Positions 1,110-6,346 of a stretch of 6,346 nucleotides of DNA are shown here, piece after piece. Position 1 is the first letter of the stretch; each line of letters starts with the position of its first letter. Source of the stretch: a virus; IMG/VR virus record IMGVR_UViG_3300045988_008366, positions 1 to 6,346 of that record; one strand, given 5' to 3'. Under the pieces are notes generated by a model. It saw only the letters and a program-made list of their open reading frames with translations. It made no database searches and was not told where the DNA came from. A program made the translations under genes and the position numbers.

Positions 1110-1619
1110 ATGATAGGAAAATTTAATTCTTTGGAATGTTTGGAACAAGGTTCTGGACTTATTCCTAATGTCGCTCCTGATGCTTTTTCTGTTGCTCCTC
1201 AGTTTGATTCTACCGAGGAACTTCGCGTAGAAATTGATGATACTGATGAGTCTCGTCCGATTCGTTACACTTCTGATGTTCGGTTGATTCTTCATTCTAA
1301 GGATTTGGCTTCTCGTGCTGGTCTTGCTGTTGCTTCTAAGTTTGGACAAGGCAACCAATCAACTTCTCAAATTCAGACAATAATGGATACGATGTCTGAT
1401 GATGACCTTCTTGCAACGGTACGTTCTCGTTATATTCAGGCTCCTTCTGAAATCATTGCTTGGTCTAAGGAATTGGCTGCTTACGCTGAGCGTCTTGAGA
1501 CTCAAGCTCAAGAATTGATTGATGCTGAAAATGCTAGACAAGCATTGATTGCTGATGATGCTAAAAACGAGGCAGGAAATGCGGCTGCTGCTTCCGCTGG
1601 TGCTGCTTCCTCTGAATAA
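1110..1619 (+). CDS. Acidic 169-aa protein between VP1 and VP2. Putative internal scaffolding protein (VP3-like). The function is inferred, not recognised with certainty.
   Basis: NNT codon periodicity is strong and the composition is acidic. It has an Ala-rich C-terminus, a predicted helical segment (AYAERLETQAQELIDAENARQALIADDAKNE), and a QAPSEI segment reminiscent of the LPSEL/IR block of gokushovirus VP3. Its position between VP1 and VP2 and the 1-nt stop/start overlap with VP2 (TAATG at 1617..1621) support a morphogenesis-module gene. Confidence 0.6.
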   Translation: MIGKFNSLECLEQGSGLIPNVAPDAFSVAPQFDSTEELRVEIDDTDESRPIRYTSDVRLILHSKDLASRAGLAVASKFGQGNQSTSQIQTIMDTMSDDDLLATVRSRYIQAPSEIIAWSKELAAYAERLETQAQELIDAENARQALIADDAKNEAGNAAAASAGAASSE

Positions 1620-2725
1620 TGGGCTTATTTGGTTCAATCACTGGTGGTCTCCTTGGTCTTGGTGCTTCTTCTGTTCAGAATTCACAGAATAGGCAGAATG
1701 TACGGGAGACCAACCAGATGAATTACAAGATTAATCAGATGAATAACCAGTTCAACGAACGTATGGCGATACAGCAGCGTAATTGGCAGGAGAATATGTG
1801 GAATAAGGAGAACGCTTATAACACTGCTTCTGCCCAACGCCAACGTCTCGAGGAAGCTGGTTTGAATCCTTATTTGATGATGAACGGAGGCTCTTCCGGT
1901 GTTGCTCAGTCTGCCGGAACTGGTGCTACTGCTTCTTCTTCTGGAAATGCTGTTATGCAACCTTTTCAGGCTGATTATTCTGGTATAGGTTCTTCCATTG
2001 GTAACATTTTCCAATACGAGTTGATGCAATCTGAAAAGTCACAATTGCAAGGTGCTAGACAGCTTGCTGATGCTAAGGCAATGGAAACTCTTTCTAATAT
2101 TGATTGGGGAAAACTTACCGATGAAACTCGTGGTTTTTTGAAATCTACCGGATTGGCTCGCGCTCAGCTTGGTTATGCTAAGGAACAACAAGAAGCTGAT
2201 AACATGGCAATGACAGGTCTTGTTTTGCGTGCTCAGCGTTCTGGAATGCTTCTTGATAATGAGGCTAAAGGTATTATGAATAAGTATCTTGACCAACAGC
2301 AACAACTTGATTTGAGTGTTAAGGCTGCGGATTATTATCAGCGGATGGCTGCTGGCTACGTTTCTTATGCTGACGCTAAGAAGGCTATAGCTGAAGAAGC
2401 TTTGGCCGCTGCTCGTGCTCGTGGTCAAGACATTTCTAATAAGGTTGCTTCTTCTATTGCTGAGTCTCAAATTGCTGCTAATATTGCGGCTAATCAATCT
2501 TCTGCGGCTTATCATAGTGAAGAGCTTAGACTAGGTCTTCCTCAAGACAATGCTCGCAGTAAGAATATTGAGGAATGGTATCGTGCTAGGAATGAAAAGA
2601 AAAGGTATAAATATTTTGACGCTGATAAATGGGTCGAATATGGTACTAGTATTGGTAATACTATAGGCAATTTCTTGCCTCGTAGAGTTATTTCTAAGTC
2701 TTTTTCTCGTTCCATTAAACCATAA
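1619..2725 (+). CDS. VP2: Minor capsid / DNA pilot protein VP2 (phiX H functional analogue).
   Basis: The N-terminus is Gly-rich and hydrophobic (MGLFGSITGGLLGLGASSV). The conserved Microviridae VP2 block NAYNTASAQRQRLEEAGLNPYLMM is present. A long Q/A-rich helical centre and a basic C-terminus follow. Size (368 aa) and position fit VP2. Confidence 0.88.
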   Translation: MGLFGSITGGLLGLGASSVQNSQNRQNVRETNQMNYKINQMNNQFNERMAIQQRNWQENMWNKENAYNTASAQRQRLEEAGLNPYLMMNGGSSGVAQSAGTGATASSSGNAVMQPFQADYSGIGSSIGNIFQYELMQSEKSQLQGARQLADAKAMETLSNIDWGKLTDETRGFLKSTGLARAQLGYAKEQQEADNMAMTGLVLRAQRSGMLLDNEAKGIMNKYLDQQQQLDLSVKAADYYQRMAAGYVSYADAKKAIAEEALAAARARGQDISNKVASSIAESQIAANIAANQSSAAYHSEELRLGLPQDNARSKNIEEWYRARNEKKRYKYFDADKWVEYGTSIGNTIGNFLPRRVISKSFSRSIKP

Positions 2726-2746
2726 CTCTAACACTGGTTCTTATAC

Positions 2747-2770
2747 TAATTATAATTATAATTATAGTTA
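2747..2770. repeat. Tandem hexamer repeat TAATTA x3 plus TAGTTA. It contains two TATAAT hexamers and lies just 3' of the VP2 stop.
   Basis: Read directly: taatta taatta taatta tagtta at 2747..2770. It sits in a stretch of about 12% G+C (2741..2800, hand count). Confidence 0.8.
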
Positions 2771-2800
2771 TAAACGTTAGTATTTTTTCATTTACATTTA

Positions 2801-2833
2801 CCCGGCCGTACTCGATACGTGCTGGGTTTTGTT
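2801..2833 (+). terminator. Candidate intrinsic terminator ending the VP4-VP1-VP3like-VP2 transcription unit. It also forms the 5' edge of the GC-rich structured module.
   Basis: The hairpin is cccggccgta-ctcga-tacg(t)gctggg. It has 10 bp, including one G-T pair and one bulged T at 2820, and a 5-nt loop. It is followed immediately by TTTTGTTG (2827..2834) and lies 75 nt downstream of the VP2 stop. Confidence 0.5.
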
Positions 2834-2926
2834 GCTTGGAGTAACTTCTGGCACCGCGCGTAGCGTGGTTATACACCTTCTGAATTTCGGGACGTAGGAC
2901 TGAAATCAGAGCCGTAGGCTATAGTA

Positions 2927-2944
2927 CTGCCACCCTCTAAGCTT
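2927..2944 (+). repeat. Direct repeat copy 1: CTGCCACCC-tc-TAAGCTT.
   Basis: ctgccaccctctaagctt at 2927..2944 compared with ctgccacccatatagctt at 3114..3131. The 9-nt core is exact and a similar TA(A/T)AGCTT tail follows. The copies are 187 nt apart, and both are preceded by a TAG-containing segment. Confidence 0.7.
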
Positions 2945-3113
2945 GACGTTCGCAACGCGTAAGCAATTTCCCGGAGAGCTTCTCTCTGCCGTCGCTGCTA
3001 TACCCCTAAAATGTTATTTGACGAAGTCTACATGAGTTTGCCCGAAGGGAAAGCGATTTACCTCATCGCTTTCAGTTCCCCCTCGTCTGAATAGCGCAAA
3101 CTCACAGACTAGC

Positions 3114-3131
3114 CTGCCACCCATATAGCTT
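3114..3131 (+). repeat. Direct repeat copy 2: CTGCCACCC-ata-TAGCTT. It marks the 3' edge of the GC-rich module.
   Basis: See copy 1. Immediately after this copy the composition drops to about 20% G+C. Confidence 0.7.
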
Positions 3132-3134
3132 CTG

Positions 3135-3167
3135 TTTATTTATGTTAATAATATATGCGTATATTTG
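3135..3167 (+). promoter_or_regulatory. Candidate Bacteroidetes-type promoter (weaker of two). The -7 box is TATATTTG at 3160..3167, with an imperfect -33 TTTA at 3135..3138.
   Basis: It matches the Bacteroides primary-sigma consensus TAnnTTTG. The -33 element is only 3/4 (TTTA) at a 21-nt spacing. Confidence 0.35.
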
Positions 3168-3196
3168 CTTTTTTAAATTTTAAATCCATATATTTG
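3164..3196 (+). promoter_or_regulatory. Candidate Bacteroidetes-type promoter for the small-ORF / peptidase / VP4 / capsid transcription unit. The -33 TTTG is at 3164..3167 and the -7 TATATTTG at 3189..3196.
   Basis: TTTG-N21-TAnnTTTG is an exact match to the published Bacteroides -33/-7 consensus, with spacing in the 19-21 nt range. It sits in an AT-rich stretch about 43 nt upstream of the first downstream ATG with coding periodicity (3239). Confidence 0.5.
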
Positions 3197-3238
3197 TTCT
3201 GTTTTTAAAATCTATGTCTAATTAAAAATTTAAGTGTT

Positions 3239-3507: not shown

Positions 3508-3816
3508 ATGAATCCTGAATTAATGAAATTTGTTGAGTGGCTTCTCCGTCGAAATCTTCATTTCACTGTCACTTCAGCCTTTCGTACCAAGGAACAGAAT
3601 GAGGCGTGTAATGGTTCTGAAAATTCTCAGCATTTAACTGGAGATGCTATCGATTTAAAGCCTTTGGATTTTTCGGTTGATTCTTTAGTTTATATAATTA
3701 AAGATTCTCCTTTCAAGTTTGACCAACTTATAAAGTATCGTACTTTTGTCCACGTTTCCTTTGCTCGTGGTCGTAAACCTCGTCAAATGGAGCTAAATTT
3801 TACTAATAGAATATGA
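3508..3816 (+). CDS. Zinc metallopeptidase of the M15 family (VanY / D-Ala-D-Ala carboxypeptidase / L-Ala-D-Glu peptidase-like). Putative peptidoglycan hydrolase (endolysin).
   Basis: The signature S-x-H-x-x-G-x-A-x-D is present as SQHLTGDAID (His42, Asp49). It is preceded by an SAFRTKEQNEACNG block (SGYR…N…GG-like) and followed by FVHVS (His82), the third metal-ligand motif. The protein is a compact 102 aa with no signal peptide. Its stop overlaps the VP4 start (ATGA at 3813..3816). Confidence 0.82.
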   Translation: MNPELMKFVEWLLRRNLHFTVTSAFRTKEQNEACNGSENSQHLTGDAIDLKPLDFSVDSLVYIIKDSPFKFDQLIKYRTFVHVSFARGRKPRQMELNFTNRI

Positions 3817-5501
3817 TTACTAAGGAATTGCAGAATAAGTTAGTGACACGTTGCCAGAATCCTCGTACGGTTGTCAACAAGTATACACATGAATCCGTTG
3901 TTGTTCCATGTGGACATTGCCCTTCTTGTTATCTTCGTCGTTCTGCTATTCAAACTAATTTGCTTACTACTTATTCTTCTCAATTCCGTTATGTATATTT
4001 TGTTACTCTTACTTATGCTCCTTGCTTTCTTCCTACTTTGGAGATTTCGATTGCTGAAACTTGTACGGATGATATTGCTGACGTTTCCTGCTTTCCGGAC
4101 ATTAGTAAGTTGGACGCTGGTGACTCTAATACTTATTTGTTTGGTTTTCGCAGCGTTCCTCGTACCGCTTCTATCAAGGTAAAAAACTCTACTGTTGAAC
4201 GTACTTTCAAAGACCCTAAGGTTAAGTTTGCTTATCCTATGAAGCCCCAGGATTTGTTGTCTATTCTTGAGAAGATTAATCACAATGTTCCGTATAGGAT
4301 TCCTTATGTTTGTAATCGTGACCTCGATTTATTTTTAAAACGTTTAAGAAGTTATTATCCAGATGAAAAATTACGTTACTACGCTGTATCAGAATATGGC
4401 CCTACCAGTTTCCGCCCGCATTGGCATTTGTTACTGTTTTCCAATTCCGAACGATTTTCGCAAACTGTTTGTGAAAATGTATCTAAGGCTTGGTCTTACG
4501 GACGTTGTGATGTATCATTGTCGAGAGGATTCGCAGCTTCATATGTTGCGTCGTATGTTAATAGTTTTGTCGCTTTACCCGACTTTTATACTCAGATGCC
4601 AAAAGTGGTGCGACCTAAATCCTTCCATTCCATTGGATTTACAGAATCAAATCTCTTTCCTCGAGAGGTACGAGTTGCCGAAGTTGACGAAGTTGCCAAT
4701 AAGTGCCTTGATGGAGTCCGCGTTGAGCGCAATGGACATTTTTGCACAATTAAACCTACATGGCCGTATCTCCTTCGATTATTCCCGAGATTTTCAGAGT
4801 CTATTCGTAAATCTCCATCGAGTGTTTACCAGTTATTATCTGCTGCGTTCACAGCGCCCGGGAGAGTCGTTCGTGGCGGATGCGCCGATTTAGATTGTAG
4901 TCCTTTTAGTTCTGACTCTAAACAATCTCTTTTATCTTTTTGTAAACAGTATTTAGATTATGTGGACAATTATGGAAAAAGAAATGACAAAAGAAATATT
5001 CTTTCACCTAAAGCGAATCTACCGTATAGTGATATTCTCATTTTGTCTGAATGTCGTTTGTACGATGGTGTTGATTTGGAACCTGTTCATCGTGTCTCCC
5101 GCGTCTACCGATTTTTTCTTGGAATTAAGAAATTTGTTCGAGTCTATTCATCAGACGGAGATCCAAGATGCTTCTTTCCCAGCTGCTTTTTCGGAGGAAC
5201 ATTCCCTGGACAAATAGATTATTTGCATATTCTTTCCGTTAAAATAGTTGATTTTTGGAATCGTTACGAGTATAAACGTCTTGTTGATTTTTATCAGACT
5301 TTGGACGATGCCAATGACAAGGAATTGGTTGATTTTGAACTTCGTAACTATTCTTTTCGTTATGATAAGTCTGTTCTTGATGAGGAAACTCCTTATAATG
5401 AAATACCTTTTGTTCGTCGCTTGGCTGCCGCGGCATTGCAGAAATGTCGGGATAAGGTTAAGCACAAAAAGGTTAATGATTTATCTGGTATTTTCTCATA
5501 G
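3813..5501 (+). CDS. VP4: Replication initiation protein VP4 (phiX gpA-like HUH rolling-circle endonuclease).
   Basis: The N-terminus has a Cys cluster (VPCGHCPSCYLRR). Motif 1 is FVTLTY, the HUH motif is RPHWHLLLF, and the two-tyrosine motif is AASYVASYVNSF (Y-x-x-x-Y as in phiX174 gpA). At 562 aa it is longer than gokushovirus VP4 and fits Alpavirinae-type Reps. Confidence 0.93.
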   Translation: MITKELQNKLVTRCQNPRTVVNKYTHESVVVPCGHCPSCYLRRSAIQTNLLTTYSSQFRYVYFVTLTYAPCFLPTLEISIAETCTDDIADVSCFPDISKLDAGDSNTYLFGFRSVPRTASIKVKNSTVERTFKDPKVKFAYPMKPQDLLSILEKINHNVPYRIPYVCNRDLDLFLKRLRSYYPDEKLRYYAVSEYGPTSFRPHWHLLLFSNSERFSQTVCENVSKAWSYGRCDVSLSRGFAASYVASYVNSFVALPDFYTQMPKVVRPKSFHSIGFTESNLFPREVRVAEVDEVANKCLDGVRVERNGHFCTIKPTWPYLLRLFPRFSESIRKSPSSVYQLLSAAFTAPGRVVRGGCADLDCSPFSSDSKQSLLSFCKQYLDYVDNYGKRNDKRNILSPKANLPYSDILILSECRLYDGVDLEPVHRVSRVYRFFLGIKKFVRVYSSDGDPRCFFPSCFFGGTFPGQIDYLHILSVKIVDFWNRYEYKRLVDFYQTLDDANDKELVDFELRNYSFRYDKSVLDEETPYNEIPFVRRLAAAALQKCRDKVKHKKVNDLSGIFS

Positions 5502-5534: not shown

Positions 5535-6346
5535 ATGGCGTCTTATACTGGAATGTCCAATCTTCAAAATCATCCTCACCGTTCTGGATTTGATATTGGA
5601 CGTAAAAATGCTTTTACTGCGAAGGCCGGTGAGCTTCTTCCCGTCTACTGGGATATTTCTATGCCCGGAGATAAGTATAAGTTTAATGTTGAGTATTTCA
5701 CCCGTACTCAACCGGTTGAAACTTCTGCTTATACTCGGTTGCGTGAGTATTTTGATTTCTATGCTGTGCCCTTGCGTCTTCTTTGGAAGTCTGCTCCTTC
5801 TGTGTTAACTCAAATGCAGGATATCAACCAGATTCAGGCTTTGTCTTTGACACAAAACTTGTCGCTTGGTTCTTATCTTCCTTCTCTGCCTCTCAGTTCT
5901 ATTTATCAAGCTTTGAGTCGGATTAATAGAAATAGTGTTAATCCAGGTTATTCTCTTTCTTTAAAGAATCTGTTTGGTTTTAATCGTAGTGATTTAAGCT
6001 ATAAGCTTTTATCTTATCTTGGTTACGGTAATATAGTATCTAACTCTCCTTCTTCTGGAAATCGTTGGTGGTCTACTTCTATAAAAAAGAGCGATGATTC
6101 TTCTGCTTATTCTCAACAATATATTCAGAATAACTATGTGAATCTTTTTCCTCTTTTGGCTTATCAGAAGATTTATCAAGACTTTTTCCGTTGGTCCCAA
6201 TGGGAATTAGCCAATCCTTCTTCTTATAATGTGGACTACTATACCGGTGTTGAGCCTTCATTGGTTTCTTCTCTTCCTGTTGCTAATAATAATTATTGGA
6301 ACTCCGATACGATGTTTGACCTCAAGTATTGCAACTGGAATAAGGA
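5535..6346 (+). CDS. VP1: Major capsid protein VP1 (phiX F homologue), N-terminal part. It runs off the window end and continues at 1..1094 through the circular junction.
   Basis: Hand translation from ATG 5535 has no stop to 6346: MASYTGMSNLQNHPHRSGFDIGRKNAFTAKAGELLPVYWDISMPGDKYKFNVEYFTRTQPVETSAYTRLREYFDFYAVPLRLLWKS... This is the characteristic Microviridae capsid N-terminus (H-x-RS-x-FD, G-x-L-x-P, LPGD-like, R-x-x-x-YFFVP-like block). NNT codon bias is strong. The frame is the same as ORF 21..1094 after subtracting 6291. The ORF is absent from the supplied track because it has no in-window stop. Confidence 0.93.
   Translation, partial: MASYTGMSNLQNHPHRSGFDIGRKNAFTAKAGELLPVYWDISMPGDKYKFNVEYFTRTQPVETSAYTRLREYFDFYAVPLRLLWKSAPSVLTQMQDINQIQALSLTQNLSLGSYLPSLPLSSIYQALSRINRNSVNPGYSLSLKNLFGFNRSDLSYKLLSYLGYGNIVSNSPSSGNRWWSTSIKKSDDSSAYSQQYIQNNYVNLFPLLAYQKIYQDFFRWSQWELANPSSYNVDYYTGVEPSLVSSLPVANNNYWNSDTMFDLKYCNWNK
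6292..6346 (+). repeat. Terminal redundancy, copy 2. Identical to 1..55.
   Basis: Same 55-mer as at 1..55. It implies a 6,291-nt circular unit. Confidence 0.95.

Follow-up and report, generated by a model that had tools for sequence, protein, structure and literature searches.

What is the function of the GC-rich, hairpin-packed and non-coding block found at positions 2801-3131 of this microvirus genome? An earlier inspection of the letters (the sequence-only reading) had proposed either a complementary-strand origin or a structured non-coding RNA. We analysed the block within the window, that is, the whole stretch of 6,346 nucleotides under study, together with its homologues in other microviruses. 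Our preferred reading, to which we give a probability of about 0.55 and in which the priming function is inferred, is that the block represents a new family of single-strand origins, where synthesis of the complementary strand would start. In the literature that we searched, complementary-strand origins are defined only for coliphage-type microviruses, to which hairpin predictions for two tiny clades can be added.

All coordinates reported earlier were exact when re-checked against the letters. The block is a GC-rich island, with 51% G+C compared to 19% and 17% in its flanks and 39% in the whole genome. No ORF of 60 amino acids or more overlaps it, the longest one being of 53 amino acids on the minus strand. 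It occupies the main non-coding gap, 3′ of the terminator-like hairpin, and positions 2801-3131 as a whole comprise three parts: this hairpin, Module A, which in the window type starts 4 nt further 3′, and Module B (Table 1). At least nine helices had been paired by eye; we counted ten, namely the terminator-like hairpin, P1-P5 in Module A and four helices in Module B. The terminator-like hairpin is present in every MFE and centroid structure, and was missed by a simple terminator scan because its stem is imperfect. Close relatives retain it with altered stem bases, and in mar62 another hairpin followed by a T-run takes its place. A sigma-70 promoter scan was uninformative for Bacteroidota.

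Table 1. Structural features of the block 2801-3131, in window coordinates.
Feature	Position	Strand	Description
Terminator-like hairpin	2801-2833	+	CCCGGCCGTAC / GTGCTGGG, then TTTTGTT; 3′ of the pilot-protein gene stop at 2725
Module A	2837-3009	+	portable structured cassette; multi-helix junction closed by P1
P1, 5′ strand	2849-2852	+	pairs with 2994-2997; U-G/C-G and G-U/G-C changes, one-sided only
P2 hairpin	2853-2869	+	7 bp, c-GTA-g triloop 2860-2862; three compensatory pairs
Unpaired tract TTATACACC	2869-2877	+	alignment columns invariant (A1, A2)
P3 long hairpin	2880-2909	+	variable tip, here c-GTA-g 2893-2897; six compensatory pairs
P4 mini-hairpin AGCC-GTA-GGCT	2910-2920	+	4/4 pairs compensatory
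Single-stranded tract ATAGTACTGCC	2921-2931	+	abuts the 3′ side of P4; CTG 2927-2929; candidate primer start region
P5 small hairpin CGT / GCG	2947-2959	+	changes one-sided only
Invariant tract CAACGCGTAAGC	2953-2964	+	encloses part of P5
Tract CTATACCCC	2998-3006	+	resembles TTATACACC; 3′ of the P1 3′ strand
Module B	3019-3125	+	backbone-specific structured module; tail ..CCACCCATATAGC
Hairpin GAC-GAA-GTC	3020-3028	+	covaries GAC/GTC, GGC/GCC, GGT/ACC, GAT/ATC (alignment)
9-bp helix	3033-3041		TGAGTTTGC, exact reverse complement of 3096-3104
CC-GAA-GG	3042-3048	+	mini-hairpin in Module B
8-bp hairpin	3050-3072		AAAGCGAT / ATCGCTTT, loop TTACCTC

The pairing of Module A was assessed on an alignment of 59 homologues, among the matches listed. 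Covariation was judged by shuffles and slid controls, and not by a phylogeny-aware method. The conserved stems with compensatory changes anticipated for a functional structure were observed: 29 base pairs are intact in 99.8% of the cells, and 13 pairs show changes on both sides, as for the P3 pair 2887-2903, which is U-A in 36 homologues and C-G in 20. These pairing and covariation values were matched by none of 500 shuffles, and slid controls were paired in 30-37% of the cells. The covariance model R1 scores 195.6 bits on Module A (E = 1e-50). G.T pairs account for 14% of the paired cells, and the complement would pair in only 85.8% of cells. Indels in Module A are not multiples of three. The tip of P3 alternates between c-GNA-g or c-GNNA-g and GAC-NNN-GTC. 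The full tract ATAGTACTGCC is found in 42 of the 59 homologues, and the triplet that follows P2, P3, P4 and ATAGTA is CTG in 47, TTG in 5 and another one in 7, the A′ subtype being devoid of CTG.

Other pairings were rejected. A lower stem near P5 (GCTT/AAGC) was discarded by eye, having mismatches in L001, L005 and L015 and no covariation, and a long-range pairing of GCTATA (2995-3000) with TATAGC in the Module B tail is broken in L033, L053 and others. A P6-like hairpin, GGAGAG/CTCTCT (2974-2989), is missing from many homologues, and this stretch is therefore considered as a variable pyrimidine-rich region. A brute-force scan for extra or pseudoknot pairs was too noisy at the diversity of the homologues.

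We also compared folding energies with those of dinucleotide-shuffled controls, the first check that the sequence-only reading had called for. The outcome was positive for Module B and the terminator hairpin but negative for Module A. For positions 2780-3150, the plus strand had z-scores of −2.2 (RNA parameters) and −2.7 (DNA parameters), and the minus strand one of −1.9. Taken separately with DNA parameters, Module B reached −4.0, whereas Module A, at +0.27, was no better than its shuffles. Thermodynamics alone thus fails to single out Module A; unlike it, the comparative evidence of 29 maintained pairs, 13 of them compensatory, shows that this module is more than a chance structure. Folding energy did not reveal any strand preference either, the element strand being more stable than its complement in 33 of 59 homologues.

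The hairpin caps obey the rule for DNA mini-hairpins (c-GNA-g or c-GNNA-g) and not the GNRA rule of RNA. The triloops noticed earlier, GTA at 2860-2862, 2894-2896 and 2914-2916 and GAA at 3044-3046, were confirmed. Across homologues, the P2 loop is c-GNA-g in 54 of 59 (GTA 39, GAA 10, GCA 4, GGA 1). The P4 loop is a C-G-closed GNNA or GNA in 54 of 59, with G...A loops in 58 of 59. Its tetraloops carry a pyrimidine at position 3 in 41 of 43 cases (GYYA-type: GTTA, GTCA, GCCA), which breaks the GNRA rule, and the commonest cap is c-GTTA-g, as in alpha3 and St-1. The loop rules of stable RNA (GNRA/UNCG caps) are not followed in Module A, where triloops dominate. Mini-hairpins of the GCGNAGC/GCGNNAGC type occupy the site where primase starts in G4 (GCGAAAGC) and in St-1/alpha3 (GCGTTAGC), and RSF1010 ssiA carries a CCGAAGG mini-hairpin; such mini-hairpins show poor SSB binding and are much less stable as RNA (PMC13037366). 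The hexamer TAGCGT at 2861-2866, which had been likened, with caution, to the CS-6 element of ssoA, is correctly positioned, but its overlap with the P2 apex was rejected as fortuitous: the T of the hexamer corresponds to the N of the GNA loop, which varies freely, and the GCGT stem bases covary to GCAT or GGAT.

The element displays a strict strand specificity. Among the matches listed, all 96 contigs carry it on the T-rich strand, where the G.T-preserving orientation is kept. In 87 of these contigs the genes share the T-rich strand with the element, the T fraction at 4-fold sites being 0.43-0.70. In the other nine (mar40, mar45, mar49, L031, L102, L185, L189, L216 and L227), the genes are on the A-rich strand (A 0.42-0.64) and the element is opposite to them, on the T-rich strand. 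One apparent orientation exception, L190, was rejected, as it has no covariance-model match. Since the element is inverted with respect to the genes in nine genomes and still located on the T-rich strand, its orientation tracks the asymmetry of replication or packaging and not transcription. T-rich third positions are a known signature of a strand that exists as ssDNA (PMC3278643; PMC4032129), from which we infer, indirectly, packaging of the T-rich strand. The coding strand of the cultured phage phiMH2K also has A in excess over T; the equivalence of T-rich and packaged strand may thus not be universal, or phiMH2K may share the phenomenon.

We propose, tentatively and at less than even odds, that Module A is a horizontally exchanged and host-directed ssDNA origin cassette which marks the encapsidated strand, and that mar40, mar45, mar49, L031, L102 and their relatives encapsidate the strand on which none of their genes is encoded. 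If true, this clade would constitute the first 'negative-sense' Microviridae; a gene on the complementary strand was once termed highly unusual (PMC3394797). The rule that links orientation to skew would provide a way of calling the packaged strand without experiment beyond sequencing, and suggests that strand polarity varies within Microviridae. Our literature search found nothing relevant on a negative-sense microvirus, nor on a described microvirus ncRNA or origin.

Strand specificity and loop rules also bear on the RNA alternative, according to which the block is a structured ncRNA gene or an RNA leader that functions at the RNA level, whether as a regulator, a host-factor decoy or otherwise. 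In the nine genomes with reversed genes the transcript would be antisense to every gene, and the orientation of the element tracks T-skew perfectly; strong covariation, many G.U pairs and invariant unpaired tracts would nonetheless suit an RNA, and a multi-helix junction of this size is typical of functional RNAs. The z-score obtained with RNA parameters over 2780-3150 is compatible with it too. However, the near-general departure of the tetraloops from GNRA and the dominance of triloops are not expected for an RNA, the window-type element begins just past a terminator-like hairpin, and no conserved Bacteroidota-type promoter was seen by eye, which is a weak test. Rfam 15 gave no match at E up to 10 within 2726-3238 or in the loci of relatives, and ARAGORN detected no tRNA or tmRNA in the block. 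The RNA alternative is thus weakened by orientation and loops without being eliminated, and we consider it unlikely. The G.U pairs and long invariant unpaired tracts of the element would suit RNA equally well, which counts against the origin reading.

Module A is present in at least about 100 microvirus contigs, from independent assemblies and from lemur, rodent, marmot and human gut, with one copy per genome. Its position differs between genomes, it occurs in both orientations relative to the genes, and modules A, A′, B and C are combined in a mosaic fashion. The two polarity classes have three element subtypes in common. Variable positions and orientations, mosaicism and a 51% G+C island in a 39% G+C genome could be the mark of passive DNA without function for the phage, whether host sequence that was captured, a chimeric assembly or a mobile element that is small and non-autonomous (MITE/PATE-like). 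A selfish insertion would however lack the strict strand choice and the compensatory evolution described above, and the single copy is carried by at least about 100 independent assemblies. Capture of host DNA had been named as a possible refutation: when 185,579 species genomes of bacteria and archaea were scanned with a pattern, two matches came up, both located in long ORFs and both rejected by the covariance model, and blastn against 72,556 plasmids revealed no similarity. We give very little credence to passive DNA. Run with filters off, the covariance model found nothing in G4, alpha3, SpV4, phiMH2K and the cultured Bacteroides phage phiHBP1; as the last one is a Bacteroides microvirus, the element is not universally required.

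Module A is exchanged between distant phages. The L031 copy shares 83-90% identity with window-type copies and only 56-67% with the copies of its clade, while the L031 Rep shares 50% identity with the mar40 Rep and, over 120 aa, about 22% with that of the window. The major capsid proteins (MCP) share 29% identity over 96 aa. An exchange across such divergent Reps (about 22% identity) speaks for a site dependent on a host factor, and not for a Rep nick site. It is thus opposed to the reading of the block as a viral-strand (+) origin, bearing a Rep nick or recognition site, since Module A keeps 83-90% identity across very different Reps and differs between Reps that are 50% identical, which is the opposite of the prediction of Rep-origin co-evolution. 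A packaging signal can be considered together with the (+) origin, as a fixed orientation on the packaged strand is expected for both and the observed orientation is indeed linked to strand asymmetry; we know of no packaging signal in Microviridae besides the origin. The motif CTTGAYG (2942-2948) resembles CTTG^ATA, which we take to be the phiX/pC194 nick motif, but a nick site does not need extensive covarying secondary structure. For the block as a whole, a (+) origin or packaging signal appears improbable to us.

Module B behaves differently from Module A, and its strict co-occurrence with one Rep lineage speaks for a Rep-linked function. It was found at no fewer than 99 loci, only with window-type Rep backbones; neither the opposite-polarity clade nor Dulem 262 has it. 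The 9-bp helix and the 8-bp hairpin that had been paired by eye were both verified. The former shows no change in 86 of the 87 unique sequences, and this helix and the loop TTTACCTC are near-invariant although Rep identity falls to 53%. The latter covaries (GCGA/TCGC in 48, GCTA/TAGC in 29, GCTG/CAGC in 1). Two of the Module B hairpins rest on the alignment. Module B may be a second initiation signal or a Rep-specific viral-strand origin.

The lineage also forms prophages, which raises the possibility that the block serves for integration, as an attP in folded or duplex form for host Xer-type recombinases as in CTXphi. Integrated window-type microviruses are found in two bacterial contigs, L183 (34.8 kb) and L208 (12.1 kb), where the non-coding block lies at the right end of the prophage. 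In L208 the prophage is flanked by a 26-nt direct repeat, TTATATTAAACAT[AA/TC]TCCTGATATTG, whose copies are 6498 nt apart. The att core of L208 and L183 belongs however to an AT-rich spacer outside 2801-3131, some 60 nt 3′ of Module B. Moreover, the window lacks a copy of the repeat (the best one has 9 mismatches of 26) despite having both modules, and the opposite-polarity clade has Module A without the att region. An attP function of the block is accordingly most improbable.

We thus return to the complementary-strand origin. The proposal that the encapsidated strand bears a structured, strand-specific site acting as DNA is supported by orientation, by the loop rule, by the absence of an Rfam match and by the non-host nature of the element, its function still being inferred. 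Because the element is always on the apparently packaged strand, even when the genes are reversed, no better candidate is available so far for the place at which the host begins to copy the incoming phage strand. The block would then be a cis-acting element that works as folded ssDNA on the encapsidated strand. Upon entry of the viral strand into its Bacteroidales host, SSB would coat it, while the short stems P2, P3 and P4, with their c-GNA-g or c-GNNA-g caps, would remain folded and free of SSB. These stems may expose the invariant unpaired tracts, chiefly the ATAGTA-CTG-CC that directly follows P4, for priming by a host enzyme, possibly a DnaG-type primase as at the G4 oric, alternatively RNA polymerase or a PriA primosome. 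This enzyme would make an RNA primer, from which a host polymerase would build the replicative form. Module A would be the portable, host-directed cassette and Module B the part tied to one Rep/backbone lineage. With an element of about 175 nt acting in cis, a covariance model and a predicted start region, conversion of the incoming strand of gut (Alpavirinae-like) microviruses becomes testable in Bacteroides. As a cassette dependent on the host priming machinery, Module A could serve as a host-linked marker for host prediction, and the element could be a part needed by ssDNA vectors for Bacteroidales.

The closest known systems are the oric of G4, alpha3 and St-1, likewise non-coding intergenic sites on the packaged strand of a microvirus, this strand being inferred in our case. 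P2, P3 and P4 may correspond to the three stem-loops of G4 oric. The start-site stem is capped as cited above in G4 and alpha3, and mostly by c-GTTA-g here. The unpaired conserved ..TA-CTG-C that follows the capped stem in Module A may be compared with the CTG 3′ of hairpin I in G4 and alpha3: ..GGCGAAAGCC..TCC-CTA-CTG-C in G4, ..GGCGTTAGCC..TCC-CTC-CTG-C in alpha3 and AGCC-GTA-GGCT-ATAGTA-CTG-CC here. There is however no sequence homology to G4 and alpha3 oric, as judged by the covariance model R1 with filters off at the annotated origins. Module A is also longer, is closed by the long-range P1 and has extra invariant tracts. Its CTG is not universal (47/59), the primase specificity of its Bacteroidales host is unknown, and it is swapped as a cassette between distant phages.

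The sso elements of rolling-circle plasmids and ICEs (definition in PMC4595007) are a second point of comparison. The origins ssoA, ssoU, ssoT and ICEBs1 sso1 resemble Module A by their orientation-specific structure, their size of 150-300 nt, their activity only as ssDNA and their dependence on host factors, the last two being inferred in our case. sso elements are interchangeable cassettes between replicons with unrelated Reps. The CS-6 hallmark of ssoA is not conserved in Module A, blastn detected no plasmid similarity, and sso origins recruit RNA polymerase, whereas the loop and CTG features of Module A point more towards primase. The phiX174 n′/PriA site and the M13 minus-strand origin are also hairpin-based signals of the viral strand that start replicative-form synthesis. 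The former consists of one hairpin region, about 55 nt long, that PriA reads; the latter mimics a sigma-70 promoter, and neither is known for arrays of GNA-capped mini-hairpins. RSF1010 ssiA differs by its size of about 40 nt and by being read by the plasmid's own RepB′ primase, while the 6.3-kb genome of the window has no primase gene; the CCGAAGG heptamer of ssiA is also present in Module B (GCCCGAAGGGA, 3040-3050).

The window covers a complete circular microvirus genome with terminal redundancy: positions 1-55 are exactly repeated at 6292-6346, which leaves 6291 nt, and the circle is cut inside the capsid gene. All genes lie on the + strand, and the block fills most of 2726-3238, the sole large noncoding gap. 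On re-check, every coordinate of the sequence-only reading proved exact, and we confirmed both its G+C island (51%, against 17-19% in the flanks and 39% genome-wide) and the lack of any overlapping ORF of 60 aa or more. Alignments of relatives, MAFFT among them, resolved the block into a terminator-like hairpin and two modules, A and B; Module A, with helices P1-P5, is hereafter the element. The peptidase ORF lies directly upstream of Rep with a 4-nt overlap; peptidase M15 genes were gained horizontally by gut microviruses (Roux et al. 2012, PMC3394797).

Coordinates of features in the window and in related contigs
Feature	Position	Strand	Remark
Major capsid protein	spans window ends	+	
Scaffold	1110-1619	+	
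Pilot	1619-2725	+	
Terminator-like hairpin + T-run	2801-2833		
Module A	2837-3009		
P1	2849-2852 / 2994-2997		long-range closing helix of Module A
P2	2853-2859 / 2863-2869		loop GTA
P3	2880-2890 / 2900-2909		variable tip
P4	2910-2913 / 2917-2920		loop GTA
P5	2947-2949 / 2957-2959		small hairpin
Near-repeat TATAC[AC]CC	2869-2877, 2998-3006		directly 3' of P2, directly 3' of P1 closing strand
AT-rich linker	between Modules A and B		
Module B	3019-3125		
Small ORFs	from 3239	+	
Peptidase	3508-3816	+	102-aa ORF; name from annotation in close relatives
Rep	3813-5501	+	
Subtype A'			in common with Module A: first 43 nt only (P1 5' strand, P2, TTATACACC)
Module C	between A and B in some relatives, or directly after A'		60-150 nt, structured
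Module C, L005	1022-1170		
Module C, L099	3660-3775	-	
Module C, L102	3985-4100	-	
Att core, 26-nt repeat	L208 (reverse complement) 3918-3943, 10416-10441; L183 5925-5950		

Folding of 2780-3150 gave + strand z-scores of -2.2 with RNA and -2.7 with DNA parameters; the - strand gave -1.9 with RNA parameters. Tested separately with DNA parameters against 200 dinucleotide shuffles, Module B reached -4.0 whereas Module A gave +0.3. On energy alone, the claimed structure is therefore backed in the terminator hairpin and in Module B but not in Module A, with the caveat that DNA energy parameters may, we assume, be blind to mini-hairpin stability. Module A is instead supported by conservation and covariation. 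Covariance model R1 recovered 59 copies, in which standard pairs fill 99.8% of 1707 pair cells and compensatory changes affect both partners of 13 of the 29 pairs. Not one of 500 shuffles matched these values, and slid controls paired in 30-37% of cells. The 59-copy alignment was fitted to the model and is thus biased toward the structure; the same compensatory changes are also seen in plain MAFFT alignments. The unpaired tracts TTATACACC, ATAGTACTGCC, CAACGCGTAAGC and CTATACCCC do not vary. The sequence of Module B hardly varies across 99 loci, with covariation in two hairpins only. Both the divergent A' subtype and Dulem virus 262 (..CCGTATATACCC) retain the near-repeat TATAC[AC]CC. Module C (TGTCGCTTGCGACCCC...ACGGTTCAAGTCCGAAGG...), found also in L023, L026 and L043, likewise carries a c-GAA-g cap and has no Rfam match. 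No Rfam match was obtained in the block at E up to 10, and ARAGORN found nothing there.

By blastn against GenBank phages, the block is 84-87% identical in the close relatives Dulem virus 236/257 and bajarodmic virus 410/1134, and about 72% identical in the marmot microviruses mar62, mar40, mar45 and mar49, which show almost no nucleotide similarity to the window elsewhere. Dulem virus 262 has only a 43-nt piece (95% identity). Pattern scans added 49 and a few more IMG/VR contigs and at least about 40 metagenome contigs; among the matches listed, all true ones are microvirus-sized or microvirus prophages. Passive capture of host DNA found no support: plasmids gave no match, and the only two pattern matches in 185,579 bacterial and archaeal species (one genome each) lie inside long ORFs and were rejected by the covariance model. 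The element is missing from phiHBP1, a cultured phage of Bacteroides. Some metagenome contigs (L111, L147, L120) carry two Module A copies, differing and 2.8 kb apart in L111 (4060-4233, 6892-7067), identical and 6259 nt apart in L147 (431-608, 6690-6867); these look like concatemer or chimeric microvirus assemblies, not biology.

The loops are of a DNA type. P2 is capped by c-GNA-g in 54 of 59 copies (GTA 39, GAA 10, GCA 4, GGA 1), and P4 by c-GNNA-g or c-GNA-g in 54, with G...A loops in 58. Among the P4 tetraloops, 41 of 43 are GTTA, GTCA or GCCA, whose pyrimidine at position 3 breaks the RNA GNRA rule. The same pattern holds for the P3 tip and for two hairpins of Module B. DNA hairpins made by GCGNAGC and GCGNNAGC (any N) are extraordinarily stable, bind SSB poorly and are much less stable as RNA; GCGAAAGC lies at the primase primer start of G4 oric, GCGTTAGC at the corresponding site in St-1 and alpha3, and CCGAAGG occurs in RSF1010 ssiA (2026 review, PMC13037366). 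The annotated G4 and alpha3 origins each comprise three hairpins, the last with a mini-hairpin cap; three unpaired bases and CTG-C come next, and the T of this CTG is where primase begins (PMC6783573). Module A similarly presents P2, P3 and P4, then ATAGTA-CTG-CC, and 47 of 59 copies have the CTG. However, the covariance model matches nothing in G4 or alpha3, so the likeness is one of architecture, not homology.

G.T pairs make up 14% of Module A paired cells and the complement would pair in only 85.8%; the structure therefore belongs to the window's + strand. In mar40, mar45, mar49 and L031 the element lies opposite all genes, just past the Rep 3' end. Since this looked contrary to a packaged-strand function, we measured composition at 4-fold degenerate sites. 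Coding strands have T 0.43-0.70 and A 0.08-0.20 in the 87 contigs where element and genes share a strand, and the mirrored skew, A 0.42-0.64 and T 0.08-0.17, in the 9 with the element opposite. Taken in its G.T-preserving orientation, the element thus sits on the T-rich strand in all 96 contigs. Duplicates between collections were not removed, and most metagenome members were found by pattern, a subset being confirmed by the covariance model; L190, the sole seeming exception, is not a covariance-model match. In ssDNA phages, a synonymous T excess arising by C-to-T deamination is the documented mark of the strand present as ssDNA (PMC3278643; PMC4032129). Orientation is thus tied to replication or packaging strand asymmetry, not to transcription direction, and we infer that the T-rich strand is packaged. 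This weighs against a structured ncRNA, which stays a live but unlikely explanation. The block is better read as a family new in sequence and structure but belonging to a functional kind already known, that of single-strand replication origins (probability about 0.55). The complementary-strand origin first proposed for the packaged strand is supported and sharpened, although nothing here shows priming. No prior description of such an element was found in the literature searched.

The nine opposite-polarity genomes, mar40 (L091), mar45 (L092), mar49 (L093), L031, L102, L185, L189, L216 and L227, have capsid, pilot and Rep all on a strongly A-rich strand, which suggests that this clade encapsidates the strand complementary to its genes; we found no paper describing such gut microviruses. 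The coding strand of the cultured Bdellovibrio phage phiMH2K (AF306496, L097) has A 0.44, C 0.26, G 0.06 and T 0.24 at 4-fold sites, so its complement bears the T-rich, C-poor deamination signature. Either phiMH2K weakens or breaks the skew rule, or the polarity question extends to this cultured gokushovirus.

Co-evolution with Rep is expected of a Rep nick site but not of a site read by the host. The L031 Rep is 50% identical to that of mar40 and about 22% (over 120 aa) to that of the window, and the major capsid proteins are 29% identical over 96 aa. Contrary to the co-evolution expected of a nick site, L031 Module A shares 83-90% identity with window-type copies but only 56-67% with those of mar40, mar45 and mar49. 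The A'+C subtype is likewise common to the two polarity classes (L099 and L104 vs L102). Transfer between very different backbones has therefore happened for at least three subtypes, always onto the T-rich strand. Module B, by contrast with this exchange, occurs only alongside Reps of the window-type lineage, whose identity falls as low as 53% (mar62), and is a better candidate than Module A for anything Rep-specific. A Rep or packaging site survives as a minor possibility, weaker than the origin reading.

Two bacterial contigs (L183, L208) contain integrated window-type microviruses, flanked by Usp and TPR+SH3 genes. Both junctions are visible in L208, where a 6498-nt prophage lies between 26-nt direct repeats, TTATATTAAACAT[AA/TC]TCCTGATATTG. 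This att core is about 60 nt 3' of Module B, within an AT-rich spacer, and is absent from the window; the modules are accordingly not the att core, and an attP reading was set aside. The core also occurs in some circular relatives, and its left half is similar to the XerD arm of E. coli dif.
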